From positions 64,001 through 128,000 of IMG/VR virus record IMGVR_UViG_3300037247_001890: a stretch of DNA of 64,000 nt. One strand, given 5' to 3'. How positions within the stretch are numbered: position 1 is the stretch's first letter; each line of letters starts with the position of its first letter. Shown piece after piece: positions 9,301 through 36,400 of the stretch. A program made the position numbers and the translations under genes. The notes under the pieces were generated by a model. The model was not told the origin of the DNA and searched no databases. It saw only the letters and a program-made list of their open reading frames with translations. The DNA is from a virus.

Positions 9301-9376
9301 TCGAATTAGTAATAGAATTTCTAATTTCTTCATTTCTAATTTTAATGCTAAAAGCGTCTCTTACGCTATTTGCCAT
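3329..9376 (-). CDS. rpoBC: single-chain fused beta-beta' DNA-directed RNA polymerase
   Basis: beta motifs GDKISGRYGNKG and PGRINPSQLLE; beta' motifs NRAPTLHKHGIQAF, catalytic FNLDYDGD, TQLTMRTFHTGG (trigger loop) and Zn site C..C..CQKCYG; no stop between the halves. Confidence 0.95.
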   Translation of the reverse strand: MANSVRDAFSIKIRNEEIRNSITNSIKSQFPIKGSKKTIELESLEVADKSITPDDFPDQKKAKLAGKSWDYPVHATMRLIDNETGKTLDSARLKIGSIPMMTNRFSTIIDGNEYHTMNQFRLKPGIYTRVKNNGQIVSQFNLEKGYNFEMDLDPEKRIFFLTRKNKHYELYGILKALGISDNEMKKAWGEEVYRLNVGTSIGKQERIVIDLYKQLTHQEVSYDKAAEGLKEYFDNTKVSPFTTKLTLGKSFESVTPEALLATSEKILKVRRGQEEPDQRDSLTFKDLYGVDDLLNAYFEKNTPKIVARIARSSENKDKLREIISSSDYGDAIRNFFVGPQADLSSTTPQTNPLEMLNEWRKTTIMGTGGIQSRHAITNEARDLHPSHIGFLDPIATPDSFKVGITLPLATEVIKKKKNILTPLLKSGASVDEKHLAKSYEDKMAAEVWNIKLGFPDQYKIVNGIIKPKGRVVKGYYQGKQTLFKPSEVEYFLIDPASIYSYTSNLVPFLANTQGNRASMGSRMLTQAVSLVNREEPLVQSHFNDKNTWEGITGSYLQPYAEQAGEITYIDKDYIVLKNNNGKSVKIGLYDYFPLNQNSYLHSTPSVKVGDKVTKGQVLADHNFSRNSILAVGSNVNVAYMPWKGFNFEDGVVVTESFAKKFTSSSMVKKSLYQAKNGMTDKTKFRIIFPDKLTPKNFSKLDENGIIKEGEKVESGDILISYMEPRDMTLTEMMVKKMGKASFLAHIDKSLEWPQDKTGVVKYVRSVGKSINIWIVVENPMVVGDKISGRYGNKGIITKIIPNSDAPHNKDGKRIDLIMSPAGVPGRINPSQLLETAAGKWAKKVGKKYIVKNFSGENSLADITAKLKQEKIEVEEQLFDGKDGKPFENKIFTGNQYILRLMHDVEKKHKARERSSYDLNLQPAAGKTGGQSIDPMTMYAMIAHGATKNLRDATLIKGQKNDEIWQALQVGLPLPTPKTNFVFDKLVAHLQNAGVNVTKNGNYLLTSPFTDKQLAKLSGGEIKDARDVLRGKNLAPIKGGLFDPDVVGGMQGSKWSHINLNTKMPHPIFEDAIIKITGLTRPKFDEIMNETYSEDGVTGNKLIQKKLNEINLKSEIKKTKAELKEAPKSKRNLLNKKYKHLEALKTFGFKPTDLMISKFPVMPAKFRPIYPLPSGDLQVSPINHHYTRIAQTAYAIKTNKDLGFDEELSRTARKDMYRILKEAVGLQEPLHQQMKRSAGIVKTIAGSVPKEGFAQRSVWTKRQDVSGRSTVTVDPSLGLDQAGIPVEMAKVIYRPFIIKEMLQMGFKPLEALENIKDNGIGSRKALLKVMENRPVLLNRAPTLHKHGIQAFKPILVDGKDIKTNPLINAGFNLDYDGDAMAVHVPVTNEAVDEAWGMLPSKNVFKAGDNSVVHAISKDYQLGLYYLTVPGKDTKKRFKTVVDAENAGIGMTDVFSLNGKKTTIGIQLVNSILPKQFRDYDNLFDSRKVNSILEKIAYETPENFDQVISGLKDLGNRYGHLRGSTVSINDLQVDHSIRENILEKWKSTLGPNSSDEKKIEAYKNAKVELKKELYKKYSDSNKFYEWLKSGALKSEEGVIQMIGMPGILQDTKGNEIPIPITKSYGEGLDSFDYWNSIYGVRKGTIDRAVNTQESGELNKRLLANTRKLLVIEEDCGTNDGIEFDITDKNILDRTSALDIEGIVEAAQLITLDIQQKLKKAKMNIVVVRSPLTCETPQGVCQKCYGLMPGGDFAPIGTNVGVLDGQAISERSTQLTMRTFHTGGAVDSGGSALAGFKRLEQIFKVPETVPNKATLAQTDGQIESIKESPIGGKDILINGITHYVPLNLEPTVKRYQSVIKGDKISTGVIKPQELAELKSFKYAQREMVKELDNIYENKFFQKTFETAIRGVTDNAEILDPGDTDLLIGDKISASYIKKKNKALIRDNKTPAQFNEYFKSIEMLTDDGQDWLDRLSNVHLKNTIKDMASTRMASNIHGHNPLPAYMYGLEFAKDPRYTY

Positions 9377-14782: not shown

Positions 14783-14938
14783 ATGACGAAAATAAAAGAA
14801 TCTGCTAAGAAAGTATACAACCGTATACCGCAGAAATACAAAGATGACGTGAAGGAAGTCTGTAGATCAACTTTTAAATATGCTAGAACAGCAGCTATTG
14901 TTAAAGTTGTAGAAAGACTTGCCGAATTGAAAAAATAG
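14783..14938 (+). CDS. small basic hypothetical protein (51 aa, MTKIKESAKK...)
   Basis: read by eye; fills a gap in the + strand block. Confidence 0.45.
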   Translation: MTKIKESAKKVYNRIPQKYKDDVKEVCRSTFKYARTAAIVKVVERLAELKK

Positions 14939-14974
14939 AAACTGGCAGACAAAAAGTAAAGAATTGAAAATTAA

Positions 14975-15160
14975 TTGAAAAACTATAAAGCAAACGTAAT
15001 AATAAAGAAAGGGAAAAAAGAAGAGGAAAGGATCCTATGGATACGACGTGATCATATCGTAGATGCCCTTAATGTTACACATAAAGTTAAAGCGATAAAG
15101 ATAAATTATATACAACAAATTTCTGAAGAAGAATACATGAAAGGGGTTGCTCATGCTTAG
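14975..15160 (+). CDS. hypothetical protein
   Basis: 61-aa ORF coupled to the next gene. Confidence 0.5.
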   Translation: MKNYKANVIIKKGKKEEERILWIRRDHIVDALNVTHKVKAIKINYIQQISEEEYMKGVAHA

Positions 15161-15753
15161 TGGATATCATAAGCATCAGCAAGGGAAACAAAAAACTTAA
15201 AGATATAGCAAGTTTTAGTTTACCACCAATTTTTTCTTGTCCATTTCATAAATATTGTTCAGATAAATGTTACGCTAGAAAATCATATAGAGCATATCCG
15301 AATACAAAAAATGCATATGACAGAAATTTTAGAATAGCAAAAGAAAATCCTGAAAACTTGAAAGAACAATTGATGGAAAATTTACGCTCTTATGAGAGTG
15401 AATATTTTCGTATCCATGTTTCGGGCGATTTCTATTCACAAGAATATTTAAATATGTGGATAGAAACTTGCAAACAATTCCCCGATAAACATTTCATGGC
15501 ATTCACGAAGTGTTACAGTTCCGATTACGAAGAAAAACCTGATAACATGGAAGTTATATTTAGTACTTTCGACAACATGCCAGCGGGAACATCAGACAAA
15601 ATACGAAATAAATACAATCGACCGATAGCACATGCAGGAGAATCCAATCCTGATAAATCCTATTATAACGATTGTCCTGATGATTGCTCGCAATGCAAAG
15701 TTTGTTGGCATTTGAGCGATGAAAGTAAGGGCGTATTTTTCCACTATCACTAG
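15160..15753 (+). CDS. phage GP88-like Cys-rich protein
   Basis: GNKKL..FSLPP..SCP...CSDKCYA, FRIHVSGDFYS, FMAFTK and C-terminal CPDDCSQCKVCW pattern. Confidence 0.7.
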   Translation: MDIISISKGNKKLKDIASFSLPPIFSCPFHKYCSDKCYARKSYRAYPNTKNAYDRNFRIAKENPENLKEQLMENLRSYESEYFRIHVSGDFYSQEYLNMWIETCKQFPDKHFMAFTKCYSSDYEEKPDNMEVIFSTFDNMPAGTSDKIRNKYNRPIAHAGESNPDKSYYNDCPDDCSQCKVCWHLSDESKGVFFHYH

Positions 15754-15773
15754 CCTCTTTCTATAGGGGGCAT

Positions 15774-19212: not shown

Positions 19213-19392
19213 TTACATGGTTGGCACGACCTCTGCCAGGGGATCTTTTACAATTCCTTCTTCTTTCTCCATAGATATTCTTCGTATCCAGGTATGACCT
19301 TCCGGTAGGATGTCTCTATTGTGAAGTGGTAATCTATAGATAGCCTCGCATTTCTCACATTTATAAATCTCATAGGTGTTATATTTTTTCAT
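19213..19392 (-). CDS. small hypothetical protein (59 aa, MKKYNTYEIYKCEKCE...)
   Basis: read by eye; TAATG overlap with the portal stop. Confidence 0.5.
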   Translation of the reverse strand: MKKYNTYEIYKCEKCEAIYRLPLHNRDILPEGHTWIRRISMEKEEGIVKDPLAEVVPTM

Positions 19393-21290
19393 TACTTCGG
19401 ACCTGCTTTTGGATGTCCGGCTTTTTTCTTTGCACCCTCGTCTTTTGTTCCATCCGCTTTCGTGCCAGCCTTTTTACTCGTTTGTGATTTTTTTGCAGGT
19501 GTAGTAGGTTCTTCTGGTTCTTCTGGCATTGCCATCTCTTGCAGCATAATTTTCTCTTCTATTCTTTTAGCTACAAGTGCTGCATGATAAGGCATCTTAC
19601 TTTCTAATTTAGTTAAGGCTGCTACTTGTCCCGCAGGATCCATGAGCATTATTTCTTCTGCATATTTATCTATCGCGGCGGATAAGTCCATTTCACTAGG
19701 ATCGCCTTGAGTTTCTTCTGTAAGCTCTTCTTTAAATTTAGCTTCTCTAATTCTTGCTTGCTCATCTATAGCTGCTTGTTGGGCACGAACTTGATATTTA
19801 GCAGATATTTCGAGAGCTTGTCCTTGAGCTTCCGCTTCCTTCATAGCAGTATCTAAAGCCAAGCTAACCTCAAATTCTTTAGACATCTTAATGTTCTCTT
19901 TTTCTTCTTCGAAGGAAATACCAAACTCTTCAAGAACTTTGGATAGACTTATTTTGTTTGTAGCCGCTAATTCAAGTATCAGTCGTTTAGTTTCTGAATC
20001 GTCGGCCATTCTCAGACGTTTGAAGTGAACTGTTACAGAAGGAAATTTTATTAATTCAGTTGCCTTCCTAATAATAAAATGATTAACAAAATCTTCTAGT
20101 TGTCCTCTGTATGTCAAGAAATGATTCTCTACTATACGCAAAGAAATAGATGAACCTGTCCATGTTGCCCCACCTTTTATAAATTCTATAGGAACTCCCA
20201 AAGAATTTATAATAGTTTCCTCTAAAAATTTTAGCTCGGCAGTAACAAGCAACATCTTAGCATCCCCACCAATATTTTCTGACCCTATGGCTATAGGGAA
20301 GATACCAATGTGATTAGGATCTATTTTCCACGCTCTTACATCTTCTTCTAATTTGCTTCGCCATGTACGAAGGTTCATTTGAGAAAACGGATCTATTGCG
20401 TTGGTAGGAGCAGGAAACAAAGTTCTGAATGGAATAATGTGCTCTGCGGCGATTGCCTCATTACCACGTCTAAGAGTCTGCATGTACCAGATGTCTGCCA
20501 GAGCACTTAAAATAATAGGTTTTCCCCAACCCATGTCTTCTTCTGCTAAAGTATTTCTTTTGAAATGGTACAGATTACCAGAATCTAATTCTATTTTTTT
20601 CTTTTCTCTTAGAGCAGTAATAAATAATTCGGGCGTAGTTTTTAATGTCTTTTTATTGCCTTTAATTATTTTGGCTTTTATTGAGGCTGGCATGGAGTAA
20701 TAATAAATGGTATCGCCAGTTAAAGGATCGTATTCAAGGTCTATATTTTCAGGACTCCATCTAACGAACCTCAAATAGTGAGGATTTCCCAGATATCTGT
20801 CATCTATGTCATAAATCCCGTGTGCATTGCATTTGGGACATTGACCATGGTATTGGAAATTTCGCCATTGGTATTTTACCTCGTCTATTGGAATCGATTG
20901 CTTACAGGATTTGCATTTTAAATATCTGTCGAACTTCATGTTCGCTGAAATGAAACTATTACCGTAAGTAAAATAATCCAGACCCACCTGAATTAGCATG
21001 GCCTTTATTTTTATATCAAAATTAAAAAATCTCTTATAAAGCTTTCTAACTTTGAGGTCTGTATCTCTGTCAAATAAAATATCTGTAATCGGGTATTCAG
21101 TTAGTTTAGTTATAACAGAATTAATAAAACCGTTTCTGTAAAAAAAGGTCCGGCAATGCTTAAACAGCATCTTGATTGATCTAGGCATGTAGGACCTAGA
21201 AATGTCGAACCAGGGAGATGGATAGTCAAGCCTAGTCAGGTTCTTACTTTTAACATAATATTTATCGCTGTACGGAGGAATATTGACCAT
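19392..21290 (-). CDS. portal protein (putative) with Zn-ribbon insertion
   Basis: 632 aa; portal-like succession NSVITKL/YP, YFTYGNSF, LYHFK, WGKPII, IINSLGVP and a charged C-terminal tail; head-block position. Confidence 0.65.
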   Translation of the reverse strand: MVNIPPYSDKYYVKSKNLTRLDYPSPWFDISRSYMPRSIKMLFKHCRTFFYRNGFINSVITKLTEYPITDILFDRDTDLKVRKLYKRFFNFDIKIKAMLIQVGLDYFTYGNSFISANMKFDRYLKCKSCKQSIPIDEVKYQWRNFQYHGQCPKCNAHGIYDIDDRYLGNPHYLRFVRWSPENIDLEYDPLTGDTIYYYSMPASIKAKIIKGNKKTLKTTPELFITALREKKKIELDSGNLYHFKRNTLAEEDMGWGKPIILSALADIWYMQTLRRGNEAIAAEHIIPFRTLFPAPTNAIDPFSQMNLRTWRSKLEEDVRAWKIDPNHIGIFPIAIGSENIGGDAKMLLVTAELKFLEETIINSLGVPIEFIKGGATWTGSSISLRIVENHFLTYRGQLEDFVNHFIIRKATELIKFPSVTVHFKRLRMADDSETKRLILELAATNKISLSKVLEEFGISFEEEKENIKMSKEFEVSLALDTAMKEAEAQGQALEISAKYQVRAQQAAIDEQARIREAKFKEELTEETQGDPSEMDLSAAIDKYAEEIMLMDPAGQVAALTKLESKMPYHAALVAKRIEEKIMLQEMAMPEEPEEPTTPAKKSQTSKKAGTKADGTKDEGAKKKAGHPKAGPK

Positions 21291-21293
21291 AAT

Positions 21294-21896
21294 TTATATT
21301 GTTGTTATTATTTCTTTGTGGTTTTGAGTTCTATAATCGATCTGGTTAGTATGCTTAGAACTATTACAAGATCTACATAATGCTTGTATGTTTTCTTTGA
21401 TAAAATCTCCGCCTTTGCTTGCAGGGTAGATATGATCACGTGCAGGCTTTAATTCATCAGTAAAAGTTTCACCACAGCATGCACATTTGTTATTTTGCAA
21501 AAGTATAATATAGTTAAATTCTTTTTCATCTAAAGTATTTAGAGTCTTAGATTTCCAATATCTGCTGTTGTGATGTCCTCGAGCTATTGCCGCTCTACCT
21601 TTTTCAGATTTTCTATATTGGGCTTGTGCTGCTTTACCTTTATCAGTTTTTCTATATTCAACATCTGCTAATTTACCTTTATCAGACTTATTATATCTAG
21701 CTATTGTTGCTTTACCTTTATCGGATTTAATGTATTCAGCTCGTATTAATTTACCTTTTTCAGACTTATTATATTCTTTTTGTCTAGCATTACGACAACT
21801 TTTGCACTCCGATCGTTTTCCATCTTTGTGTCTATTATTGTTATAATATTCTTCTAAAGCTTTATTCATTCCGCATTTAGTGCATATCTTATTCAT
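21294..21896 (-). CDS. HNH endonuclease with Zn finger and 13-aa repeats
   Basis: CTKC..CKSC; five YxKSxKGK repeats; CACC..RDHIYPASKGG....NIQALCRSCNSSK; start placed at MNKICTKC. Confidence 0.85.
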   Translation of the reverse strand: MNKICTKCGMNKALEEYYNNNRHKDGKRSECKSCRNARQKEYNKSEKGKLIRAEYIKSDKGKATIARYNKSDKGKLADVEYRKTDKGKAAQAQYRKSEKGRAAIARGHHNSRYWKSKTLNTLDEKEFNYIILLQNNKCACCGETFTDELKPARDHIYPASKGGDFIKENIQALCRSCNSSKHTNQIDYRTQNHKEIITTI

Positions 21897-21906
21897 AATC
21901 AACAAT

Positions 21907-22452
21907 TTACACAATTTCTAACTGTTTAGCAAGAAAATCAACATTTTTTCCGGATTCGATATCATGATATAATTCTATTGCCATCAAATGAGATGCTTGT
22001 ATATCAAGGATGCTGTCATCTCTCAAAGGAAAAGGTCCGGATTCCATTTTGTCTCTAACCTCTTTTAACATGGCTTTGTTATCTTCTGTGTTATCAATTA
22101 CTTCAGGATAAATATATACACCGCCATCATTAAACACTCTCTTTGCATAAATTCTAACCTCAAAACTAAACGGGAGCCTCGGCATTATCTTAGCCATCAA
22201 TAAAATTCCGTGCCATAACTGCTCTGCATTTGGTGGTTCCAGCACGGTGAAATCAGGGACTTCATAATTTAAAGCGGTAATTATATTCTCAAAAATATAA
22301 AAATCCTCATAAGGCCGAGGATCCTTTTTTAAAGTTAAGATTGATTGTATAAAACTCCAACGGCCCTCATCTATATCTGCAAAGTCTTCTCGGAGTATTT
22401 CCGTATCCGGATATTCTATTCGATCCAAAGTGATTATATCTTTAATCTGCAT
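21907..22452 (-). CDS. hypothetical protein (head block)
   Basis: 181-aa ORF in the late operon. Confidence 0.65.
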   Translation of the reverse strand: MQIKDIITLDRIEYPDTEILREDFADIDEGRWSFIQSILTLKKDPRPYEDFYIFENIITALNYEVPDFTVLEPPNAEQLWHGILLMAKIMPRLPFSFEVRIYAKRVFNDGGVYIYPEVIDNTEDNKAMLKEVRDKMESGPFPLRDDSILDIQASHLMAIELYHDIESGKNVDFLAKQLEIV

Positions 22453-22747
22453 CTAGCATCTTTTTGATTTGCCCATAAGTAGCAAAGCTAATACCAGCAG
22501 CAAGACTGCCTTTTAGAGCTCTCCAACCGCTGCCTTTCCATTTATGTAGGAATCTTTTTAGAGTCGTTGAATTGGCAGGTAATGGTTCTATTATTTTTTT
22601 AGTGGCTATCTGCTCTAATGGGTGGGTTCCAAAAACCGCAGTAGCGCCGGCAACACCACCGGCTAACAAGTCATCGAAACCTTTTTCTCTAGAGACCTTT
22701 TCAAAATATTTCATTTGACTCTCCACAGTCCTATCAAAATATTTCAT
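22442..22747 (-). CDS. small membrane protein resembling one mitochondrial-carrier (Solcar) repeat
   Basis: LLAGGVAGATAVFGTHPLEQIATK ... WKG...LKGSLAAGISFATYGQIKKML. Confidence 0.5.
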   Translation of the reverse strand: MKYFDRTVESQMKYFEKVSREKGFDDLLAGGVAGATAVFGTHPLEQIATKKIIEPLPANSTTLKRFLHKWKGSGWRALKGSLAAGISFATYGQIKKMLDAD

Positions 22748-23829
22748 TACTGCTCGAGTTCGCTAAGAATGCCTTCTCTAATTGGGGATGGTAAACTTCT
22801 GAATATGTCTGGGCCATCATCGGTCTTTAGTGCTTCCTGAGTTTCCTTGTCAATCCAATCTGATAAATCTCCGCCAACTAATGTATTGTATTCTGTCTCA
22901 GAGAGAATTCTATCATCTATTTCATACAGAGCTTCTTTTTTCATACCAAGTGTAGCACTTACTGGTTCTTCGATTTTTCTGTCATAATGATAGTGTAAAT
23001 TGGCATTTTTATCTATTTTATTTAACGCACTGGCCACTTCTATCGGTGTCCACTCTGCAGTCTTTTCTAATAAAGCTTTATAAGCAGAGCGTGTTGGCTC
23101 ATCGTGAGTCATTGTAGCGCGACTTCTTATGTGATGTACGAAGTCAGGATTGAACGACTTAGCATCAATATGTGCCAATTTATCAATTAGTGCTGTTGGT
23201 TCTATCTTGAACTGGCCCAATTTAGGAAACAGATTTTTAGCATATTCTATTCTGTCCTGAACCTCTAATTCTCGTGCATAATTTTTGAAATATGCGAAAG
23301 CTTTTTTAGTCAGTTCTTCTGTGTGAATAGGATACTTTTCCTCTTTCGGAAGTGCGTATTCTATTTCAGTTGGTTTCTCTTTGTTCTTTTCCAATTTCTG
23401 ATAAAATGCTTTTTTATCAACTCCATTGTTGACATCTATAATATTTGAATCGACAAAGTCATTAACAAAAGGTTCCAGGTCTTCTGGGAAGTCTACTTTA
23501 AAATGTACTGCAGCTTTTTTCAAATGTGTAGCTGCAATCTTAATCAATTCATCAGGAATTTCTTTAATTTTTTGTGAGAGCAATTGTGTATTTAAAGCCG
23601 TCAATTCCTTATTGTAGTATGCATATTTATGTCTAAACCCATTTCTTTTATCAAAAAGAACAAGGGCGAAGTCATCTTCATTCCTTTCGGCTGCCTCTTC
23701 AATCGAAGGTACGAAAGCTTGTTTGATTGAGTCATCCATGGAAGAAACTAATTCGGCAACCTTCTCCACATTTCCAGAAGTCACTTCATCAGTTATATCG
23801 TAGTTTTTGGTTAATAATTTAAAGCTCAT
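22747..23829 (-). CDS. hypothetical head-associated protein rich in K-x-A motifs
   Basis: 360 aa; first gene after a class A promoter; AAGGA RBS. Confidence 0.65.
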   Translation of the reverse strand: MSFKLLTKNYDITDEVTSGNVEKVAELVSSMDDSIKQAFVPSIEEAAERNEDDFALVLFDKRNGFRHKYAYYNKELTALNTQLLSQKIKEIPDELIKIAATHLKKAAVHFKVDFPEDLEPFVNDFVDSNIIDVNNGVDKKAFYQKLEKNKEKPTEIEYALPKEEKYPIHTEELTKKAFAYFKNYARELEVQDRIEYAKNLFPKLGQFKIEPTALIDKLAHIDAKSFNPDFVHHIRSRATMTHDEPTRSAYKALLEKTAEWTPIEVASALNKIDKNANLHYHYDRKIEEPVSATLGMKKEALYEIDDRILSETEYNTLVGGDLSDWIDKETQEALKTDDGPDIFRSLPSPIREGILSELEQ

Positions 23830-23851: not shown

Positions 23852-23883
23852 TAAATATAAGAAAATTTTCGTACAGGATCAAG
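23852..23883 (-). promoter_or_regulatory. class A promoter CTTGA-N19-TATATTTA
   Basis: exact consensus, upstream of the head/portal operon. Confidence 0.7.
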
Positions 23884-24451
23884 CCCTATACGCGTTTTTG
23901 ATTGTGTTCATTATGTCTGTTCCGGGACATGATTTTTTACGACCTGATTTCACTTCGCAGTGTCCTATAACATTTTTTTCTTGGATGTCCCATATATTAG
24001 AAACCATTAAATGGTCTGTTAATTCTATTAAAGCTTTTAGTTGTGCTTTGGTTGGTTTCTCTTTACCTTCATGATCAGGTCCGGAGAAATCGCCCAAAAT
24101 ACAAATACCTAAGCTTTTTTTATTCATACGATTTGAACCAGCATGCCAAACGATATCCCAGTGATAATTGCACTTGTATATAGTCCCGCTACGCTCGATG
24201 GTGTAATGGTATGCTATCGCGGGTGCTCCTTTAGCTGATAAATGATTCCTCTCCCAGTCCTCAACTATACCATCCATATTTCTGTCACCAGTAGGAGTAA
24301 CATGATACTTGGCAATACCACGTGTGGTACAACCTTTGCAAGCAGCTTGATGGACAACTATAGTAGTTATCTTATGACTCTTACGAAATTTCCAGATTCG
24401 ATTGACATCCGGATTCCTAGGCAGTTCTTCTGCAACATCAACTATTTTCAT
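23879..24451 (-). CDS. N-acetylmuramoyl-L-alanine amidase (Amidase_2) endolysin
   Basis: IVVHQ, IAYHYTI, WHAG..N..SLGIC..GDF, Q..AL, GH.E....KSCPG Zn ligands. Confidence 0.9.
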   Translation of the reverse strand: MKIVDVAEELPRNPDVNRIWKFRKSHKITTIVVHQAACKGCTTRGIAKYHVTPTGDRNMDGIVEDWERNHLSAKGAPAIAYHYTIERSGTIYKCNYHWDIVWHAGSNRMNKKSLGICILGDFSGPDHEGKEKPTKAQLKALIELTDHLMVSNIWDIQEKNVIGHCEVKSGRKKSCPGTDIMNTIKNAYRA

Positions 24452-24689
24452 TGTTTTCGTTATCTCTTCTTGCTGTTACGACCTTTATATCTGCTTTTTT
24501 AAATAATTCTTTTCCGAAGTACGCAGCGAAAACACCACCGATAATCATGTATTGAGTTGGATCCAGAGCACCACTAGTTGTAATCATAGTGTAAATACAA
24601 CTAGCAAAAAATACAACTCCGGAACCATATGCTAAAAATCTTCTTACAGATTTCGTTGTCTCTCCACCTAAAAATTTTAAAAACTCCAT
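24438..24689 (-). CDS. holin (putative)
   Basis: two hydrophobic helices and a charged C-terminus, adjacent to the endolysin; start at MEFLKF. Confidence 0.6.
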   Translation of the reverse strand: MEFLKFLGGETTKSVRRFLAYGSGVVFFASCIYTMITTSGALDPTQYMIIGGVFAAYFGKELFKKADIKVVTARRDNENNENS

Positions 24690-24699
24690 AATAAATCCT

Positions 24700-25176
24700 T
24701 TATTTTCCCAGCAGTTGTCCAGCTGCATACACAAGGGCTAAAGTTCCAACAGTGCCTATTATGATACCCGTTGTCCTAGTCTCATACCAGGCAGGTTTAA
24801 TTACTACAGTCTTAATTTTCTCTATAGTGATAATCTCTTTTTCAATAATTACTTTCATTGGTTTTATATTCAATAACTCAACTTCAAATAATTCAACAGC
24901 ACATTCTGCCCAAGCTTCCACACGTACATCGAAGTTTTCCATCTCAAATGTCTTTGTGGATTTTATTAAACCAGAATCAACTGTCTCAACAACATCTGGT
25001 GCCGATTCCATTACCACCGGTTTTATTGGATCAATCCATATTGTATCTGGTACGAAGACAGTATCTATACCTACTGTGGTTGTTTCCTCAATTATATCTG
25101 GCGAAGGTGATAGTAAGTATCCTAAGATAGCTCCTACTACTAATGCTACTATTAATAGCGTTGCGTTAATCTTCAT
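24700..25176 (-). CDS. membrane protein, spanin-like position
   Basis: N- and C-terminal hydrophobic segments; start at MKINATLL after AAGGA. Confidence 0.45.
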   Translation of the reverse strand: MKINATLLIVALVVGAILGYLLSPSPDIIEETTTVGIDTVFVPDTIWIDPIKPVVMESAPDVVETVDSGLIKSTKTFEMENFDVRVEAWAECAVELFEVELLNIKPMKVIIEKEIITIEKIKTVVIKPAWYETRTTGIIIGTVGTLALVYAAGQLLGK

Positions 25177-25197
25177 AATATTTTTTTCCTTAATACC

Positions 25198-25229
25198 AAA
25201 ATATAAGAATAAAAAAACCAAAAGTCCAG
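25198..25229 (-). promoter_or_regulatory. class A variant CTGGA-N19-TATATTTT for the lysis cassette
   Basis: same spacing with one mismatch in each box. Confidence 0.5.
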
Positions 25230-25248
25230 TCATAAGTCACTCAATAAA

Positions 25249-28200
25249 TTATACATCTATACGATAAATAGTTCCTGTTGAAGAATAAGCTATTCCTGCG
25301 CCGATTCTAACGTGAAAATACATAGCGGTTTCACCGTCATTATTATCAGTACTAGAAGTTACAACTACTCTACCATTAACATCTGTTGTAGCAACATTTC
25401 GTGCTGTTTCATCTACAACACCATGTCCAGTTCCAGTTGATACTGAAAAAGTTATTGTTCGTTCACCAGTTATATCTGTTGGTGCACCAAATTGGGTTTC
25501 ACTTACCCACCATTCTACAACACCACGAGTATTAGCACCGTCAATACCATCACCATTACCAATCCTATCAGTAACTACTCCATTCATATCACAAACATCA
25601 ACTGTAAAAGTTCTTGCTGAATCACTACCACCGACAGTTATTTCGGGATATAAAATATCTTTATGTATTAGATTTCCATCATGCGTAAGTTCCATTTTAA
25701 CGCTTCTAGTATCGTCTTCTGTATAAAAACCTATGCCTTGTTGGTTGCTTGCTGCCCCATTAATACCAAATATACCAGCGTATGCAGACGGAGAACTAAA
25801 ATGTATTCCACATTGAGTACCAGTAGTCGTAGAAGCGTTATGAATTCTCATCCCAGGTAAATTAGATAAAGTTGTGCCAGCATATACTGTGTCATCATCA
25901 AATTGAATGAGAAACATACTTGAGCCTAGTGCTCCACGCATTGATATACTACCACCATCAGCAGAATTCGGAGTTATAGTTAGATAACTATCATCCCCTA
26001 TAGTATTTACTTTAAAGTCTGCATAATGAGTTGCATCATATTCCAGTCTAACTGCAATATCTGTTGATTCAAATCTACCACCAATTGCTATACCATTTCC
26101 TTCATTAGTTCCCCAACCATGAATACCTATTGCATCCAATCTAGTATTTGAAATATTTACATCAGACCACGCTCTAAGGGCAACTCGTTCACCAGTATAG
26201 TCATAATTCGGATCATCTTTTATATATACATCCAATGCTAGACCATCTATAGTATCTGCAAATATTGGAAAGTCATGTTGTACATTAAGTAATTGAATTA
26301 TACTTGGAGTGGTAGTGGTGTAATTATTAACAGATAATCTATTATGTTTTAATGATGATGAATCAAAACCATCAGGATTACTTGCGAAAAAAATACCATT
26401 AAAGACTTTTATACCAGCAAGTTCCCCTGAAATACTATCATCTATAAAAACCCTGAGATCATTTGATGAGTCATAAAAACTTATAGTGTTTTCAATACCA
26501 TCAATTTCTAATCTTTGTCCAGATTCAGACGATTTTATACTAACTGAACCAGTGAGTGAATCTATTAAAAATGTATTAACGTTATTACCAAATGCACGAA
26601 GCCCATATGCATCCATTTGAACATAGTTACCACCAGCGTAATTACCACCACGAATAGTAGGGGAACTTAGAAGATATCTACTAATACTAGTAGTATGTTC
26701 TACATTCCAGGCCATGTTTAGGGAATTTCCAAGTACAGCAGACAGTGAAGGCTCACTGCCGTCTACAACATGCACGGCAGGAGAATATAAAAGTAGTTTA
26801 TTTTCCTCCTCATCATTGGAATTCTTTTGAAAACATCTAAAACCTTGGACTGTAGTAGCATCTAAACTTTTATAATCTATGCCGGAATAAGTAGGAGGAG
26901 AGTACCCCGATTTGTAGTGATATAAACCGCCCCAGCTATCTGTCCCCACATAATCATCTGGGTGAACAAAACCAGTTAATAAATACCAAGGAGTTTCTTG
27001 AAATTCTACGTCGTCAATATATATAGCTGCACTTCCACTAACACTGATATTAGTAACTGATAAATATCCTTCTTCGGTATTATTTTCTGCTTCGAAATCT
27101 AGCATGTAATTGGTCCAAATGCCACTTGGAACTAATACAGGTGTATTGTCTGTTTCTAAAAAGTCATAATCTGAAATACCGTCACTTACTTTAGCTTCCC
27201 ATTCTGTTACAGCATCACCATATAGCCATATTGATGCTCTATATTGGTATCCTGCCATTATTTTTAGATAACTTTTGTTGCTATTTATTAAATAACCATT
27301 AAAATCTTCAAATATATCATCATAAACAGAAAGTTCTGTTTCGGTATTAACTGCTGTTACATAAGTTCCTTCTCCTTTTGACATATTGTATACTAAATCA
27401 TTTATGGCAACTCCGGCACTAATAAAATTAGCACCAGAATCTACTAATTTTCCAGCTAAAGTTTCTGTACAACCACCTCTAGCAGTAGTATATTTATCTG
27501 TTTTTAGACCGTCACCGGAAGCCTCTGCTACAACTTTTCTTGAATACGTACCACTATGTGCTTGTTCACTAGAAGTATCATGAGAAGAAGGATTACCAAC
27601 ATAAGTCCATCCGGTAAGACGTGTGCCAGTAAAGGCTCCGTCATCCATACTACCATTAACAATTAATTGAGTACTAACTTCTACAGCATCTATATACACT
27701 CCAGCTGATGTATCCACTTCAGAGGCAATTACATAAATTCTATTAGTTGTAGATCTTTCAGCGGTTTGAAAAGTTACAACATGGTTAGTCCAGTCATCAT
27801 ATGTTATATAAGAATTTTCATAACCAAGTTCTTTAATCCAATATCTTTGTTCGCCATTATCTATATAAATTTGCCATTTTGTTGTTTTACTAACTGAATC
27901 TAGCCAAATAGAAAATCTATATGTTTGATAACCTTCCAACGTGAATTCATCACTCTTAACACCCGACCCAACATCCGCTTCCCATAAATCACAATACCAC
28001 GAATAAGTACCATCAAGTTTAGAGGCCGCAGATCTTTGAGAAGAGATAGGGTTACCATAAGCATTCCAGTTTGCGTCTAACTCCATGCTAGGATTTGCTA
28101 CAGGATTATCATTAAAATGAATTGCATTAGGTAGTTCTAATCCAGATGCAAAATACGGATTATTATTAACAGAATCAGAATCATCAAAGGTTAAATCAGA

Positions 28201-28893
28201 GGTATGTCCTGTATTTCCACAACCAAAGAACATATCTCGCCCAATACCTCCTATAAACTTCGCCCAAATAGTGTGTCTATATCTTAAAGTCTTGTCTATA
28301 TCATAGGTATTATATGCCCAGCCTCCTGCTTCTTCACCACCTGATACTACATTGCATTCCCATACCAAATCTTGGTAACCGAAAGGATTTAGAGTACTAA
28401 TAATAGAATTATTCTCTTCACCAGACCCATATGGATCATACCCATATGGATTAGAACCCTCAGTCCAGTATCCTATGCCGCTAGGGACTGTTGTTTCATG
28501 CCACAATCTCACATCGGGAGATAGAATATTTGCTCCAGGAATTATTCGTGTACCGAATATTAATTGTGAATCGCCTCCTATAAGAAGTGTAGAACCATTC
28601 CATTGGATTGCCCCGTCTACACCGCCCAGATAAAAATGTCCGTCGATACTCATGTAAGACATCCACTCAGCACCATTGTAATATCCTAAATAAGTCTGCG
28701 TTAAGTTAAGGCCTGATTGAACAGATGGATCTGCTCCAGGCAAAACAGATGTTATAATAGTACTGTTGGCATCAAAACCAGTATAAGCTCTCGCAGCACC
28801 GGTTTTTTCGTCCTGTGTGGTTTTATAAAATGTATCACCGTCTTGTACAATATCCAAGGTTCTTACTTGGACGCCCGAATGGGTTATACTCAT
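25249..28893 (-). CDS. tail fibre / receptor-binding protein with carbohydrate-binding-like domains
   Basis: 1214 aa, G/S/T/D-rich beta composition; two CBM-like units (NPSME..W...YRFSIW...YIDAVE; NGSMD...YRASIW...YIDDVE). Confidence 0.65.
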   Translation of the reverse strand: MSITHSGVQVRTLDIVQDGDTFYKTTQDEKTGAARAYTGFDANSTIITSVLPGADPSVQSGLNLTQTYLGYYNGAEWMSYMSIDGHFYLGGVDGAIQWNGSTLLIGGDSQLIFGTRIIPGANILSPDVRLWHETTVPSGIGYWTEGSNPYGYDPYGSGEENNSIISTLNPFGYQDLVWECNVVSGGEEAGGWAYNTYDIDKTLRYRHTIWAKFIGGIGRDMFFGCGNTGHTSDLTFDDSDSVNNNPYFASGLELPNAIHFNDNPVANPSMELDANWNAYGNPISSQRSAASKLDGTYSWYCDLWEADVGSGVKSDEFTLEGYQTYRFSIWLDSVSKTTKWQIYIDNGEQRYWIKELGYENSYITYDDWTNHVVTFQTAERSTTNRIYVIASEVDTSAGVYIDAVEVSTQLIVNGSMDDGAFTGTRLTGWTYVGNPSSHDTSSEQAHSGTYSRKVVAEASGDGLKTDKYTTARGGCTETLAGKLVDSGANFISAGVAINDLVYNMSKGEGTYVTAVNTETELSVYDDIFEDFNGYLINSNKSYLKIMAGYQYRASIWLYGDAVTEWEAKVSDGISDYDFLETDNTPVLVPSGIWTNYMLDFEAENNTEEGYLSVTNISVSGSAAIYIDDVEFQETPWYLLTGFVHPDDYVGTDSWGGLYHYKSGYSPPTYSGIDYKSLDATTVQGFRCFQKNSNDEEENKLLLYSPAVHVVDGSEPSLSAVLGNSLNMAWNVEHTTSISRYLLSSPTIRGGNYAGGNYVQMDAYGLRAFGNNVNTFLIDSLTGSVSIKSSESGQRLEIDGIENTISFYDSSNDLRVFIDDSISGELAGIKVFNGIFFASNPDGFDSSSLKHNRLSVNNYTTTTPSIIQLLNVQHDFPIFADTIDGLALDVYIKDDPNYDYTGERVALRAWSDVNISNTRLDAIGIHGWGTNEGNGIAIGGRFESTDIAVRLEYDATHYADFKVNTIGDDSYLTITPNSADGGSISMRGALGSSMFLIQFDDDTVYAGTTLSNLPGMRIHNASTTTGTQCGIHFSSPSAYAGIFGINGAASNQQGIGFYTEDDTRSVKMELTHDGNLIHKDILYPEITVGGSDSARTFTVDVCDMNGVVTDRIGNGDGIDGANTRGVVEWWVSETQFGAPTDITGERTITFSVSTGTGHGVVDETARNVATTDVNGRVVVTSSTDNNDGETAMYFHVRIGAGIAYSSTGTIYRIDV

Positions 28894-28926: not shown

Positions 28927-30405
28927 TTATATTATCCTAGTCACACTTGATATCCAGAATTGGTGCCATTTAACTATCTCGTCTTCCGGTACCTCATAAG
29001 TGAATGCTCCAGCAGTCCCACTAAATAATTCGATGCCGCTACCTTCCATCAAGTCCCCAAGATTATTGGCAGCATGATGAACTATGCTGACCCCAGCCAA
29101 TATTCGACTAATATCATTAGTCCAAGATAATGATATTTGATTTAATGCAACAGATGTGTCCAAATTAGTAGGATCGGGAACGGAATATGTTAAAGCAATT
29201 CCACTTTCTATAGGATCACTATAATGGCCCACTGATTTGTGATAAATCTTATAATATATAGTACCTATTGCATCATAACTTTTGTCAACAATAGTAACAC
29301 TCTCTGAGCCGCTAGGAATTTCTACATTGCTAATAGTTGCTATAAGATTATAATTATTCTGATCTCCTATTGAGGACCATATTTCATACTCAGATGATTG
29401 TCCAGATGAAACCACATTCCATGTAATTTCAACGGTGTCTCCCACTTCTATAAAATCTGCTCCGGTAATAGGGTCTGGATACAAAGGCTGCCAGAACAAT
29501 CCTATAAAGCCTGGAGTTCCTGGGAATCTCTCAAAAACATTAGGATCAAACCCACTGGCTACTACCGTAATAGGAGAAGGAGTGGCAGTAGTCGATCCAA
29601 AGAAGAGAGTAGGATCTACTCCATCGGATACTACCGTAATAGGAGGAGGAGTAAAGTTAATATCCCCAAAGGGTATTACAAAAGGATCTACTCCACTTGC
29701 CACTACCGTAATAGGAGAAGGAGTAAGACTAAGTGCTCCCTCAATTACAATAGGATCCACTCCGCTAGCAACCACAGTGATAGCAGAAGGCGTGTATATA
29801 ATATCCTGACCTACTACAAAAGGATCTACTCCGCTAGCTACTACAGTAATAGGGGAAGGAGTAAATTCTATTCCAGAAAGAATTACAGTAGGATCTATTC
29901 CTTCAGCTACTACTGTAATAGGGGAAGGGGTGAAAGTAAGTGCCCCTTCTACTACTATAGGATCTATTCCACTAGATACTACCGTTATCTCAACGGGCGT
30001 AAAACTAATCGACGCAAGGACTACACCAGGATCTACTCCACTTGCCACTACCGTAATAGGAGAAGGAGTAAATTCTATTCCAGAAAGAATTACAGTAGGA
30101 TCTATTCCTTCAGATACTACAGTAATAGGGGAAGGAGTAAAACTAATTCCCCCCTCAATTACAAAAGGATCTACTCCACTAGCTACTACAGTAATAGGGG
30201 AAGGAGTAAATTCTATTCCAGAAAGAATTACAGTAGGATCTATTCCTTCAGATACTACAGTAATAGGGGAAGGCGTGAATTCTATTCCAGATTGGATTAC
30301 AAAAGGATCTATTCCACTAGATACTACAGTAATAGGGGAAGGAGTAAATTCTATTCCAGAAAATGCCTCTTCAAAATATTCATGGGCACCTACATCCCAA
30401 GCCAT
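28927..30405 (-). CDS. virion protein with 12 x 23-aa repeats and C-terminal FN3-like domains
   Basis: FTPSPITVVxSGxDP repeats; ITW..YEIW and ISLSW motifs. Confidence 0.7.
   Translation of the reverse strand: MAWDVGAHEYFEEAFSGIEFTPSPITVVSSGIDPFVIQSGIEFTPSPITVVSEGIDPTVILSGIEFTPSPITVVASGVDPFVIEGGISFTPSPITVVSEGIDPTVILSGIEFTPSPITVVASGVDPGVVLASISFTPVEITVVSSGIDPIVVEGALTFTPSPITVVAEGIDPTVILSGIEFTPSPITVVASGVDPFVVGQDIIYTPSAITVVASGVDPIVIEGALSLTPSPITVVASGVDPFVIPFGDINFTPPPITVVSDGVDPTLFFGSTTATPSPITVVASGFDPNVFERFPGTPGFIGLFWQPLYPDPITGADFIEVGDTVEITWNVVSSGQSSEYEIWSSIGDQNNYNLIATISNVEIPSGSESVTIVDKSYDAIGTIYYKIYHKSVGHYSDPIESGIALTYSVPDPTNLDTSVALNQISLSWTNDISRILAGVSIVHHAANNLGDLMEGSGIELFSGTAGAFTYEVPEDEIVKWHQFWISSVTRII
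29536..30348 (-). repeat. coding tandem repeat, 12 x 69 bp
   Basis: visible at both DNA and protein level. Confidence 0.9.
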
Positions 30406-33400
30406 TACGACCTCGTTGTTCCAATTATATCATCATCATATAACCCAGAGCCTGGATTTGTCAAACCACTTTCTCTTAAATCAGAATCTGTGGATTTTAA
30501 TCTATAATCATTACTCGTCCAATCTTCAAAGACATCAGCCCAGTTGGCTGGGGTGATTGGATTATCGCCATCGCCATCATCAGTTGCACAAGTATCAATC
30601 GTTGAGCTAGAAGCAGCACCAACATCAATATCATCATTATTGTTCCATATTGCACAATTCTTAATAATAATATCACCGGAATTAGCAAAGACTCCATCTA
30701 CAGTATTTGATCCTTCGATAGTACAATTATATAAATCTAAAATTGACCCATTAAACTCAATCCCTCGCCGTGGACAACCATATATAATTGTATTCCAAAC
30801 TGTTAAATTTGTATCATCATCACCAATATCAATACCCATATATCTTACAGTTGCTCCGGGGACACACCTAATAATACTATTTGATATTCTAATGTCATTA
30901 CTACTAGTAGTTTGGCCATTAATACCCAAACAAGCAGAAAATGTATCTAATGAGGAATAAATTTTGCTGAATTGAACAGCATCTAACCGGACATAATCTT
31001 CACTAATATCAAATGGATCATCATCAGTTATTTCTATTCTCCATTTGGATGAATCCCAAGATGCACCAGTAGGTCTTTCTCCCTGAACTTTGACATAATT
31101 AACAGACTCTGTTGTCCATCCATTAATATTAACCTTACTACTATCATTGCCACCGCTACTAGATCTGCAAACAGCAACACATGCTTTTCCAATTGTCGCA
31201 GTTGTTAAATCGCCCTGCTCAGTTGATTCCCACGTATTAAGAGAAGTATAATCAAACCCTGCACCACTATCAGGATCGACTACCTTACCGTATTCTAAGC
31301 TGTGATGTGCTCCTACATCATAAGAGTCAGTCGCTGCAGAACCCCTTGAATTTCCTAATACGTCGTCAGTAACAGGAAGATCAGAGTCTGCATAAAGATT
31401 TGTTCCTTTAAATATTGCTACTTCATCAAAATAATTAAGAGTAAAATCATCGCTTCCCTCATCTTGAAAAGTTACTGATCCGAACATATTTGTCTTAACT
31501 GTATAAGTTTCATTGCCAGTATCAAATATATCATCGTTCAAAGTCAATTGCGTATCGCTGTCAACCACCGTAACATAAGAATATGTACTGTCAGTATCAT
31601 TCTCAACTATAGAGCCTACCTGTGCCGCAGATAGTCCACCACCCGAGTCATTAAGCTTATTAGCCCCATAGGATGTCGCAGTACCAGTTGCGTGATTTGC
31701 ACCAAATATAATGAAAGAAGCAGGTGTTGTATCTGTTATATTGTGAGTCGAAGCCGAATCAAACGTTCCATCATAATCTGTAATACAATCATTCACTATA
31801 TTATTTTTAGCAACCATAGTACCTGAACCCCGCCTTATTCCAATATCACAATTATGAACAGTATTATTATATAAATAAGTAGATTCATTTGACTCAATTC
31901 CTCTAGAAGTAGTTCCAGTGAAATCATAAACTATATTATTCCATATATAAGCGGTAGGATTCGCATTAGGGCCGACAAAAATTCCAGTATTATTATCAGC
32001 TGGATTGCTATTTCTTACTATACAATAAGAGATAAAAATCTCACTGGCCTCTGTATTACTCCACGGTATGGTAATAGGTTCCCTAAATGTTGCTGAACTG
32101 CTTGGAGATGAATCTATTTGCAATCCTTCAATTCTAATACATGCTTCCAAAATATTTATTACATCACTATTTGCCTCTATTCTAAATTTATTTCCAGTTT
32201 GCCATGTGCCATTATGTCGATAAGATTCAGTAGGGTCAGTCCACATTTTTATGTAATTAGTAGTAGTAGATGTCCATCCGTCCAAAGTAAATGCAGTAGA
32301 ATCAGCCGTCCCACCAGTACATCTACAAGTTGCAATTGAAGCTTTATATAAACCAGTAGCATCTAAATCAGCTTGCTCAGTTGATTCCCATGTATTTAAA
32401 TCAGTATAATCATAGCCTGCTCCTGAATCCGGATCAATAACATGTGCTACAGAATCTGAATAGAAAGCACCGATATCAAAATTATCAGTAGTAGACGCTC
32501 CTCTCGATACACCCTTGACATCATCTGTAATAGCTATATTAGAATCAGTATAAAGATTTGTCCCATACAAAAGACCACCATCATCCTTCGGGTCTAGCTC
32601 ATAATTTTCAATACCAGAATCAACAAATGTAAAAGTCTGGCTTGCCCTATTTCCAGTTCCACCATGAGCAGTGGCGGTTGTATCTTCAGACGCACAATAA
32701 TTTAAATCTAAAGTACCAGCAGTTTCAACAAAAGCAGTTCCAGAATTTTGATCATTACATAATATATTTTTACAATAAGTAGTTCCCGTACCAATCGCTC
32801 TACGAATACCATAATAGCTTCCTATAATAGTAGTATTATGAATATACCACGATTCATCTGATTCGACTCTAATGGCAACATTTTGATTACTAGCATTTTT
32901 ATGTCCATCAAAAAATAAACAATTACTAACATAAGCCTTGGAATCAAGATCCATTGATCTAAGTGAATATTGCCAATAAGAAATATTTGAATTACATTTA
33001 AATACACAATTTTTTATTTCTATTTTATTGTCACTATTTACAGTCCGAATTTCTATAAGTCCTTTTCCATTAGATACAGGAATATTACTTAATTGTATTC
33101 CATCAAACACAATATAATCCTCATCAGTAGTTAAAGCATGTGCATCTCCAGATATTCTTCTATAATAATCAGTATTCCAAATCCCTGAATGTCTATAACT
33201 TTCAGCCGGATCTGTCCAAATTTTAATATAATTTGCAGAGGATGTCGTCCATCCCTGAATTACAGTTCCAGTAGAAGTATCATCAGCCCCGCCACTCGTT
33301 GCTCTACAACAAGCAACTGAAGCTTTATATAAACCAGTGGTACCTAAATCGCCTTGTTCAGTTGATTCCCATGTATTTAAATCAGTATAGTCATAACCAG

Positions 33401-36400
33401 CTCCTGAATCGGGATCGACTACCTTACCATATTCTAAAGAGTGATGTGCTCCTACATCATAAAAGTCAGTCGTTGATGCTCCTCTTGAATTACTAAGAAT
33501 ATCGTCTATAATTGGATGGTTACTATCTGTATAAAGATTAGTACCTTCAAATATTGCTACTTCATCTAGATAATTAAGAAGGTATGTACTCCCTTCAAAA
33601 TCTACAGTACCCACTTTATTTGTAAAAATAGAATAATCCTCAGTTCCAGCAAATATATTATCATTCAAGGATAATTGGATATCACTATCAACTGCTGTTA
33701 CATAAGAATAAGCAGTGTCTGATGTATCTTTGACAACTGAACCAATCGGAATTGATGATAACCCTCCCCCAGAATCAATTAATTTATCAGTGGCACCTGA
33801 AGTTACAGTTCCAGTTTTCCATGTTGAACCATAAGCAGTTCTAGTATCTGCCTCTTCAACAATATTAAAACCGGTATTAGAGGTTGTTTGTCCAAAAAAA
33901 CTTCTGGTTCCAGCACCATCACATATATTATTTATAAGAGTTGAAGAAGATGTTCCACGAATAGTATATAGTCCACCTATACATGTATTATTATAAATAT
34001 AACCCGACCCATCATCCAAAATACAATAATTTGCGACAGTCCCATTTATATCATAAATAATATTATTCCCAATTTTTACAATAGCATCTGCATCAGCAAC
34101 ACTTATTCCATTTTGAGTATAAGTACCATTATTAGCACCTCTAATAATACATTTTTCAATCCTTATATCATTACTAACATCAATAATAGCAACTCGAATA
34201 ACATGATCGCTATTATCATTAATAGATGGTGTTCTTATTTGTAACCCTTTTAATCTAACATAATTTTCTCTAATATTTAAACCAGCTATACCAGCATCAG
34301 TTATTTCATATCTATAATAATTTCCAGTTAGCCACGTTCCATTATGTCTATAGCTTTCAGTAGGATCAGTCCAGATTTTTATATAATTTGCTGCCTCGGT
34401 AGTCCATCCATCAACACTTGTAACAGTTGTATCTGCTGTACCGCCCGTACATCTGCATACTGCAACAGAAGCTTTATTTAATGCTGAAACCTGTAAATCA
34501 GCTTCCTCGTTTGATTCCCAAGTATTAAGAGAAGTATAATCAAACCCTGCACCACTATCAGGATCAATAACGTTGCCATATTCAAGGGAATGATGTGCTC
34601 CTACATCAAAGTTATCCGTGTCAACAGAACCTCTTGAGTTTCCTAGTATATCATCTGTTATTGGGAGTTCAGTACCTGAGTAAAGATTAGTTCCTTTAAA
34701 AATTGCCACTGTGTCTAAATAATTAAGAGTAAAATCATTACCAGCTTCATCATTGAATACTGGGTTGCCATACATATTTTCTTTTATTGTATATGCTTCA
34801 CTCGTACTAAAATGATCATCATTAATTGATAGTTGAATATCAGAATCAATAGCAGTAACATATGTCCAATCAACACCAGCATTTACTAATGATCCAATTC
34901 TGATTGATGCTAATCCACCGCCAGAATCAATTAATTTATTTGTTGCTTGACCAGTGGTTGTTCCGGTTTTTTGATCTGCTCCAAAATTACCATCACTGGT
35001 AGCATCAGGATCTAAATCAGTAATATTCCAACCTGAAAGAGAATTATATGTACTTCCATAAAAATTATCCGCTCCACCAACCGATATATTATTTATAACA
35101 ATACCCCAATCACCAGTAAGGCGAAATCCCCTTGTACAATCCACCATTGTATTATTATAACATCTTACACTACCAGCATCTCCAGCATTTATTCTAACTC
35201 CATAAAAACAATCATAAGTGATGTTGTTAGAAAAATAGATTTTTTCACCCGCACTTAATGAGTCATTAAACCATGCATAGCATTCTTCTGCTCCACCACC
35301 ATCTTTAAGAATACATTTCTCAATTCTTAAATCAACTGTCCCTGTTAAAGCCATCAGCGACTGAGTAGCGGTATCTAGGGTAGTAGAAAAAGCAATACCC
35401 TCAAAACGAACATGGTCTTCTTGAATTATGACTGACTCAGCAGAACCAGTATACTCAAATCTATACTTATTTCCAGTTGGGTAAACTCCAGCATGTCTGT
35501 AGCTTTCAGTAGGATCAGTCCATATTTTTATGTAATTAGCAGATTCTGTAGTCCAACCAGCTATGCTAAAAGTATCCGTATCTGCAGTACCACCAGTACA
35601 TCTACAAGTAGCAACAGAAGCCTTATACAATCCTACTGCAGTTAAATCAGTTTCCTCGTTTGATTCCCATACATTTAATGAACTATAATCAAATCCTGCA
35701 CCTGAATCAGGATCAACTATTCTATTGTATTCTAGAGAATGATGAGCACCAATATCAAAATTATCAGTAGATGAAGACCCGCGAGAATTTCCTAGAACAT
35801 CATCTGTAACAGGAGAGTTAGCGTCTGCATAAAGATTAGTACCATGGAACATGGCTAAAGTATCTTCAGCAGTTAAAAAATAATTTCCAGGTTGAAAATC
35901 AGGAGTTCCAAAAATATTAGAGGTTACACGATAGGCTTCATTACCTGTATCAAATGCGTCAGAACTTAAAGTTAATTGAGTGTCTGAATCAACCACCGTC
36001 ACATAAGCATAACTTGAATCAGTTGTATTAGCTACAACGGAACCAACTATTGCAGCACTTAACCCACCACCAGAATCATTTAATTGATTTGCACCGTAAG
36101 AAGTTGCTGTACCAGTCGTTAAATCAGTATTAATCCCACCTAAAGAATTTGCAACTAGTGTTCCGTCTTCAATTATATTATAGCCAGTGTCGTCATTTGT
36201 TGAATCAGTTGCTCTATCAGTTTGATCTTGATATATATTATTGATTTGTATTGTAGTTCCGGCATTTCTATCAACTCCAAGATTTCCTCCAATAAGGACA
36301 TTATTATAGACATAAACCGTTCCAGATGAAGTCATATAAATACATAATGCCGATGCATGTGCAGAAATATCATAAAATATATTATTATGTATTTTAACGA

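Follow-up and report, generated by a model that had tools for sequence, protein, structure and literature searches.

Profile comparisons show that P0001, a 101-residue protein of a large uncultured tailed bacteriophage from marine sediment, is a true stand-alone single Solcar repeat, homologous to one third of a mitochondrial carrier. By this homology it belongs to the carrier superfamily, yet to judge from its sequence it lies outside the family proper, which is defined by three repeats and by gate motifs. The virus record (IMGVR_UViG_3300037247_001890) is linear, 169,274 bp long and an estimated 85% complete, and its best DNA match is a marine sediment metagenome, possibly its own source sample. 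The window, that is the whole 64,000-nt stretch of this record that was analysed, has a G+C content of ~35%. Among the products of the phage are a baseplate wedge protein, an ATP-dependent DNA ligase, HNH endonucleases and an Amidase_2 endolysin. The span 22442-22747, picked out in the earlier note as a carrier-like gene, corresponds to exactly one minus-strand open reading frame of 101 aa, and both of the helices quoted there are present: LLAGGVAGATAVFGTHPL at 22616-22669 and WKG...KKML at 22454-22540. The gene and its parts are as follows.

22442-22747, minus strand: stand-alone Solcar (mitochondrial-carrier) repeat gene encoding P0001; 101-aa open reading frame with a match to PF00153.
22670-22747, minus strand: N-terminal tail, residues 1-26, with the KYFEK motif and a duplicated start, as read from the sequence.
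22616-22669, minus strand: odd-numbered-type helix, residues 27-44, with G30xxxG34 and the kink proline P43 at its end.
22595-22621, minus strand: degenerate matrix-gate signature PLEQIATKK, where the canonical form is P-x-[DE]-x-x-[KR]-x-[KR].
22541-22594, minus strand: basic loop and short 'matrix-helix'-type segment, residues 52-69, from charge and predicted helix.
22454-22540, minus strand: W-K-G turn and even-numbered-type helix, residues 70-98.

We compared P0001 and its relatives with carrier profiles, structures and individual repeats. Comparison with the Pfam Mito_carr profile (PF00153), which the earlier note had proposed as a check, gave an E-value of 1.4e-7 and 31.6 bits, over the curated cut-off of 22.3 bits, and the match runs from position 6 to position 92 of the 96 in the profile, nearly the whole repeat. 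All 16 close homologues (88-108 aa) match PF00153 at E 1 or better, and for the distant short members P0040, P0061, P0062 and P0064 the score exceeds the cut-off. When 1.84 billion representatives were searched with phmmer, the short proteins recovered were a single close cluster and four distant sequences of 101-122 aa; ~40 true three-repeat carriers also came up, and the best identities to any carrier are only ~30-37%. Several top phmmer matches (P0017-P0020, P0022, P0023 and others) were rejected as carriers, being Gly/Ala-rich low-complexity proteins.

The relationship extends to carriers of known structure. A family profile made from an alignment of 21 short proteins (A3) matched eight chains in the PDB, all of them carriers (E 6.8e-10 to 6.9e-7): the ADP/ATP carriers (AAC) 6gci (6.8e-10), 1okc (1.7e-9), 4c9g and 4c9j, and UCP2, UCP1 and GGC1. 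The first match after the carriers reached only E 0.08. This profile aligns individually to carrier repeats 1, 2 and 3; the close-family profile (A1) alone reached no carrier in the PDB. Alignment of the 21-member profile with 54 eukaryotic repeats, cut from 18 eukaryote-type carriers, gave a probability of 99.3% and an E-value of 1e-20 in hhalign, and an HMM built from eukaryotic repeats only selects the P0001 reading frame in a six-frame translation of the phage (E 1e-13). Since the similarity spans both helices and the intervening turn, it is more than that of a glycine-zipper helix, and we rejected the reading of P0001 as such a helix only. With matches in Pfam, among PDB carriers and by hhalign, the one-repeat SLC25/Solcar homologue described in the earlier note stands, and the prospect that no profile would match, which it had named as fatal to the idea, did not materialize.

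The repeat is also the only one in the genome. PF00153 has one match in the whole 169-kb phage genome, the family HMM and the carrier-repeat HMM likewise find one when run unfiltered over the six-frame translation, and a second phage record contains exactly one match. No relation of the neighbouring genes to the repeat was found. Carriers proper have three tandem repeats in a chain of ~300 aa, with six TM helices; P0001 has one repeat in 101 aa. A length-agnostic search found no fused two- or three-repeat phage form, and a search restricted to longer proteins returned only eukaryotic carriers. There were no relatives in prokaryotes at one genome per species (185,579 species), no match to the protein by tblastn against GenBank phages, no further viral contigs in scans with P0061, P0062 and P0064, and no RNA data set among the sequencing runs listed as matches. 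PHROGs holds no family for the protein, and thus no holin family. Three contigs, L007, L014 and L015, were discarded as sources of family members because their proteins are eukaryotic or giant-virus multi-repeat carriers. The carrier of L007 (IMGVR_UViG_2778261144_000003, positions 5030-5704) has 224 aa and two or more repeats and is unrelated to the phage single-repeat group; the contig is giant-virus-like, with Hsp70, two FtsH-type AAA proteases and a cysteine protease.

Comparison of the conserved positions indicates which parts of the repeat the phage family has kept. In a joint alignment of eight diverse phage members with the 54 carrier repeats, the common positions are A29, G30, G34, P43, L44, G72, F88, Y91 and K95. 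The conservation profiles of the two groups correlate (Spearman 0.39, p 3e-4), and none of 77 circular shifts reaches this value. Across the phage family G30, G34, P43, G72 and F88 never vary and Y91 is found in 88%; the same residues occur in 81-100% of the 54 carrier repeats (Tyr in 57%), with G30, G34 and P43 at 98-100%. In the W-K-G turn and the even helix, the phage family keeps G72, K79, F88 and K95 without exception. P0001 therefore has each element by which we defined the structural core, namely GxxxG, the kink proline, [YWF]xG and the even-helix Phe and Tyr. K79 is aligned, in helices 2 and 6 of AAC, with the Arg that precedes the conserved Pro by three residues; these arginines we take to be R79 and R279 of the substrate site.

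The gates are different. The displacement of the basic residue in the P-motif, remarked on before, is real: PLEQIATKK keeps the Pro and Glu of the matrix-gate signature and has Ala at +5 from the Pro, with lysines at +7 and +8. The +5 basic residue is missing in 21 of 21 family members, and in many of them His or Gln replaces the acid of the motif. At the position of the cytoplasmic-gate motif, [FY]-[DE]-x-x-[KR], P0001 has YGQIK, with the Tyr and Lys kept and Gly in place of the acid; YExxK is found in only two of the 21 (P0061 and P0064). P0001 has also lost the Gln 'brace' position and the even-helix proline, the latter retained only in the 122-aa sub-family. On the evidence of these alignments, the structural core of the repeat is retained and both salt-bridge gates of alternating access are incomplete.

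Next, we examined the surroundings of the gene, which include the following features.

22747-23829, minus strand: 360-aa acidic protein, upstream; conserved partner in 6 loci.
21907-22452, minus strand: 181-aa protein, downstream; conserved partner.
21294-21914, minus strand: HNH homing-endonuclease-type gene; an insertion here, located elsewhere in relatives.
19392-21290, minus strand: probable portal protein, 632 aa; phrog_16240, E 1.5e-6, collinear.
23879-24451, minus strand: Amidase_2 endolysin; PHROG endolysin/amidase families at E 1e-17, PF01510 in relatives.
24438-24734, minus strand: small two-TM holin-like protein, directly upstream of the endolysin; Kyte-Doolittle peak 1.68.

The ATG of the carrier-repeat gene overlaps the stop of the 360-aa gene (TAATG), and its 3' end overlaps the start of the 181-aa gene by 11 nt. 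The order tail fibre, two small TM proteins, Amidase_2, 360 aa, carrier repeat, 181 aa and probable portal recurs in contigs of 139 kb, 72 kb, 28 kb and 17 kb. The portion from endolysin to portal is also found in a distant lineage (L008/L009), whose five shared proteins are 32-51% identical, and in all the synteny around the repeat is conserved at six loci. The neighbours in another distant relative, L005, are unrelated to the 360-aa and 181-aa proteins by hhalign, so this partnership is not universal and the repeat is not tied to one context. Against four relatives the carrier-repeat gene has a dN/dS of 0.18-0.19, compared with 0.17-0.19 for the endolysin and 0.03-0.09 for the portal and two flanking genes. 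Because of this ratio, the overlaps with its neighbours and the kept gene order, we regard the reading frame as a genuine gene under purifying selection.

The 5' end of the gene has undergone a tandem duplication. The 14-nt repeat ATGAAATATTTTGA occurs at 22734-22747 and at 22701-22714, a spacing of 33 nt, which creates two in-frame starts, each followed by KYF(D/E). The second ATG is preceded by GGAG, 6 nt upstream, and two isoforms of 101 and 90 aa are possible. Homologues have one or two copies of the start region, with a spacer of variable length. Within the KYFEK tail, the close family shows no variation at F15, E16 and K17, and over the alignment of all 21 members F15 and K17 hardly vary.

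Few of the neighbours have recognizable relatives. For the helical, acidic 360-aa protein, searches of Pfam, PHROG and the PDB were negative, and the Atlas gave weak leads to phage DUF6582/DUF2213 clusters. The 181-aa protein had no family match in Pfam, PHROG or PDB profiles, the probable portal had no match in the PDB by sequence, and no family match was found for the holin-like protein. The 'head operon' of the earlier note fits only roughly: the gene does lie in a long minus-strand run of late and structural genes beside the probable portal, but a lysis cassette is on the other side, and no capsid or terminase families (Pfam) were detected in the phage genome, where the PF07068 model matched no control genome either.

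Several other loci were noted in passing. HNH genes sit at differing intergenic spots of the block (21294-21914, minus strand, in the window; 5656-6300 and 12781-13461 in L001; 3655-4302 in L012; and a further site in L010), as expected of mobile homing endonucleases. Upstream of the endolysin, 24438-25233 (minus strand) encodes two small membrane proteins with no family match, one of 177 aa with N- and C-terminal hydrophobic segments and the other a two-TM protein of ~81-98 aa, which look like a holin/spanin-type lysis set. A 2015-aa reading frame at 3329-9376 (minus strand) matches several PHROG RNA polymerase beta-type subunit families along its length and may be a fused multisubunit-type (beta/beta'-like) phage RNA polymerase. 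A 240-aa protein at 51883-52605 (minus strand), within the structural run, matches the PHROG 'RNA polymerase sigma factor' at E 6e-8. The structural run also contains a 2559-aa reading frame with no PHROG match (30405-38084, minus strand), and a 1214-aa reading frame of tail-fibre size at 25249-28893 has no Pfam match. In L008/L009, a phage with a 122-aa single-repeat protein, an RVT_1 reverse transcriptase at 14836-15762 adjoins a VWA-domain gene and may belong to a diversity-generating retroelement.

Turning to the protein itself, we considered where it is likely to reside. The 19-residue Kyte-Doolittle maxima of its two helices are 0.97 and 0.56, and helix hydrophobicity (0.5-1.3) lies in a range shared with true carrier repeats (0.5-1.7). 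The inter-helix loop (residues 45-74) has a net charge of +4 and both tails have a net charge of 0, which by the positive-inside rule would place the loop on the cytoplasmic side, the topological equivalent of the matrix. Hydrophobicity and charge are thus consistent with a membrane location; since the helices fall below the usual threshold for autonomous bacterial membrane insertion, homology is the one positive argument for it. AF2 monomer models from the A1 and A3 alignments had pLDDT values of 51.3 and 54.8 and, at this low confidence, contained helices at residues 23-41 and ~60-99 and no compact fold. Foldseek found no match to these models in the PDB, and the VIA wide search returned generic long-helix/coiled-coil rows at Z <= 6, which are not meaningful.

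We propose that P0001 is most likely embedded in the cytoplasmic membrane of the host, its basic loop facing the cytoplasm, and that it would form a homo-oligomer, most likely a trimer, to give a carrier-like six-helix bundle. A trimer is suggested because one repeat contributes two of the six helices of the carrier barrel, so that three are needed, because the phage encodes no second repeat, and because the GxxxG used in helix packing never varies. Three copies of the invariant K79 would line its perfectly threefold-symmetric cavity. Given this triple lining and the two incomplete gates, we would expect passage of a channel-like or leak type, or a small symmetric anion carrier, and not a strict nucleotide exchanger. 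The gene would be made late, in translational coupling with the 360-aa and 181-aa proteins, and by reason of this coupling P0001 probably acts with them. We give an even chance to a homotrimeric carrier-like assembly in the inner membrane, without canonical gates and acting as a channel or as a small-symmetric-anion carrier. The gate motifs that define the carrier mechanism speak against it, as they are incomplete here, and so do the late-operon site by lysis and portal genes, which is unusual for a metabolite transporter, the low-confidence monomer models with no meaningful fold match, and the partners that L005 does without. On the suggestion that the protein is ejected from the virion, we found nothing for or against.

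The main rivals to this assembly are roles in lysis timing and in portal assembly. P0001 could be a holin-, antiholin- or pinholin-like protein, a late oligomer of which depolarises or perforates the inner membrane, with dual-start isoforms as in dual-start holins. In four lineages the gene indeed follows the Amidase_2 endolysin by ~1.1 kb in the late minus-strand run, and its product is small, with two helices and basic ends. The two in-frame ATG-KYFEK starts, with GGAG 6 nt before the second, would fit such a role, and the absence of carrier gates would suit an open pore. However, the gene directly before the endolysin encodes a better holin candidate, with two TM segments, a peak of 1.68 and a charged C-terminus, while P0001 is separated from the endolysin by the 360-aa gene and a ~50-nt gap that follows the endolysin gene. 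At 0.97 and 0.56, its helices are far less hydrophobic than typical holin TM segments, several family members have one start only, and no lysis gene was recognised beside the L005 homologue. We consider a lysis-timing role unlikely, if the best placed of the alternatives.

A role in morphogenesis is a little less likely again. Here the small P0001 would associate with the membrane and, together with the 360-aa and 181-aa proteins, help to start or anchor portal or prohead assembly there, and gp40 of T4 has a role analogous to that of such a membrane-side factor. At six loci the probable portal gene is directly preceded by the translationally coupled trio, and the acidic, helical character of the 360-aa protein and its weak DUF6582/DUF2213 leads are in keeping with the idea. 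The portal assignment is nonetheless a single PHROG match, the neighbours belong to no recognised family, those of L005 are not related to them, and no capsid or scaffold family was recognised.

We then asked how a phage came to have such a gene, using a maximum-likelihood tree of 12 phage proteins and the 54 carrier repeats. In it the phage proteins come out as a single group (support 89/73, recovered in 88% of bootstrap trees), which falls outside the supported repeat-1 and repeat-2 clusters and in an unresolved polytomy with repeat-3 sequences; with only 104 columns, the tree does not distinguish a basal from a derived position. The nearest three-repeat matches are diverse eukaryotic nucleotide-type carriers (SLC25A42, SCaMC, fungal and algal), a diversity that indicates no single donor. 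One repeat, for example one exon, might have been captured recently from a three-repeat carrier of a eukaryote, a giant virus or a bacterium, leaving a remnant with little or a different function. Three-repeat carriers do exist in giant viruses (L007), the nearest matches are of the eukaryotic nucleotide type, and the tree is compatible with a position among repeat-3 sequences. Yet the phage group nests in no particular carrier subfamily, its sub-lineages differ in ~70% of their sequence at the same length and with the same motifs, purifying selection is clear, and identity to carriers is as low as given above. Taken together, these points make recent capture improbable.

Alternatively, the phage proteins may be living descendants of the one-repeat gene that preceded the triplication, or of its sister lineage. 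Such an ancestor has been postulated since Saraste and Walker (1982), as cited in PMC13385207. We hold this origin to be a touch more doubtful than capture.

It is very improbable that P0001 is a soluble helical hairpin, virion-internal or cytoplasmic, which retains only the sequence features of a carrier repeat: its hydrophobicity is low by the bacterial TM standard and AF2 gives long helices with no compact fold, but that hydrophobicity equals that of genuine carrier repeats, and helices that pack within a membrane typically have small-residue faces and a GxxxG like the invariant one here.

The carrier-like assembly that we favour can be set beside known systems. With SLC25 proteins (PF00153; AAC structures 1okc and 6gci; UCP1 and UCP2), P0001 shares the full repeat architecture with GxxxG, the kink Pro, [YW]xG and F..Y..K, and a basic residue where AAC has Arg, and the profile matches are significant in both directions. 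It differs in having one repeat in place of three, in lacking the +5 base, the acid of the cytoplasmic motif and the Q-brace, in its extra conserved N-terminal KYFEK tail, and in being encoded by a tailed phage. SemiSWEET and SWEET offer a parallel, in which small subunits oligomerise into the fold of their fused relative. P0001 would resemble SemiSWEET as a single unit of the prokaryote world that oligomerises into a fold which eukaryotes encode as one chain; its fold is unrelated, and the oligomer is here a proposed one, whereas that of SemiSWEET has been solved.

Carriers and their derivatives are known from other unusual settings. Mimivirus VMC1 and Legionella LncP are three-repeat carriers found outside eukaryotic nuclei, as cited in PMC13385207 too. 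Like these two and the L007 carrier, P0001 is a carrier fold encoded by a virus or bacterium; unlike P0001, which falls in a phage-only group, they are multi-repeat proteins thought to have been acquired from eukaryotes. The MTCH2 family comprises outer-membrane insertases that derive from SLC25 and depart from its canonical architecture, according to PMC13274618. P0001 is comparable in being SLC25-related and non-canonical, and may likewise have a membrane function other than transport, but MTCH2 is eukaryotic and keeps most of the three-repeat body, with one helix lost. Full-text searches of the literature turned up neither a report of a stand-alone carrier repeat nor one of carriers in tailed phages. 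A 'mitochondrial carrier homolog 2' in the paper on Fusobacterium phage FNU1 was set aside, as it is a BLAST match at E 8.5.

In recent papers SLC25 is described as having no known prokaryotic ancestry, and how mitochondrial carriers arose still counts there as an unsolved question. With a conserved repeat that stands alone in nature, the hypothesis that carriers arose by the tripling of one repeat becomes directly testable. Does one repeat trimerise into a carrier barrel, what could a perfectly symmetric carrier without salt-bridge gates transport, and could tandem fusion of the phage repeat recapitulate the triplication? If the phage proteins do descend from the one-repeat gene or its sister lineage, the SLC25 repeat would exist in the prokaryotic virus world in homotrimeric form, as a source of the eukaryotic three-repeat carriers or a relic that predates them. 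P0001 is also a candidate for a small membrane protein of a kind new among the late genes of large marine phages.
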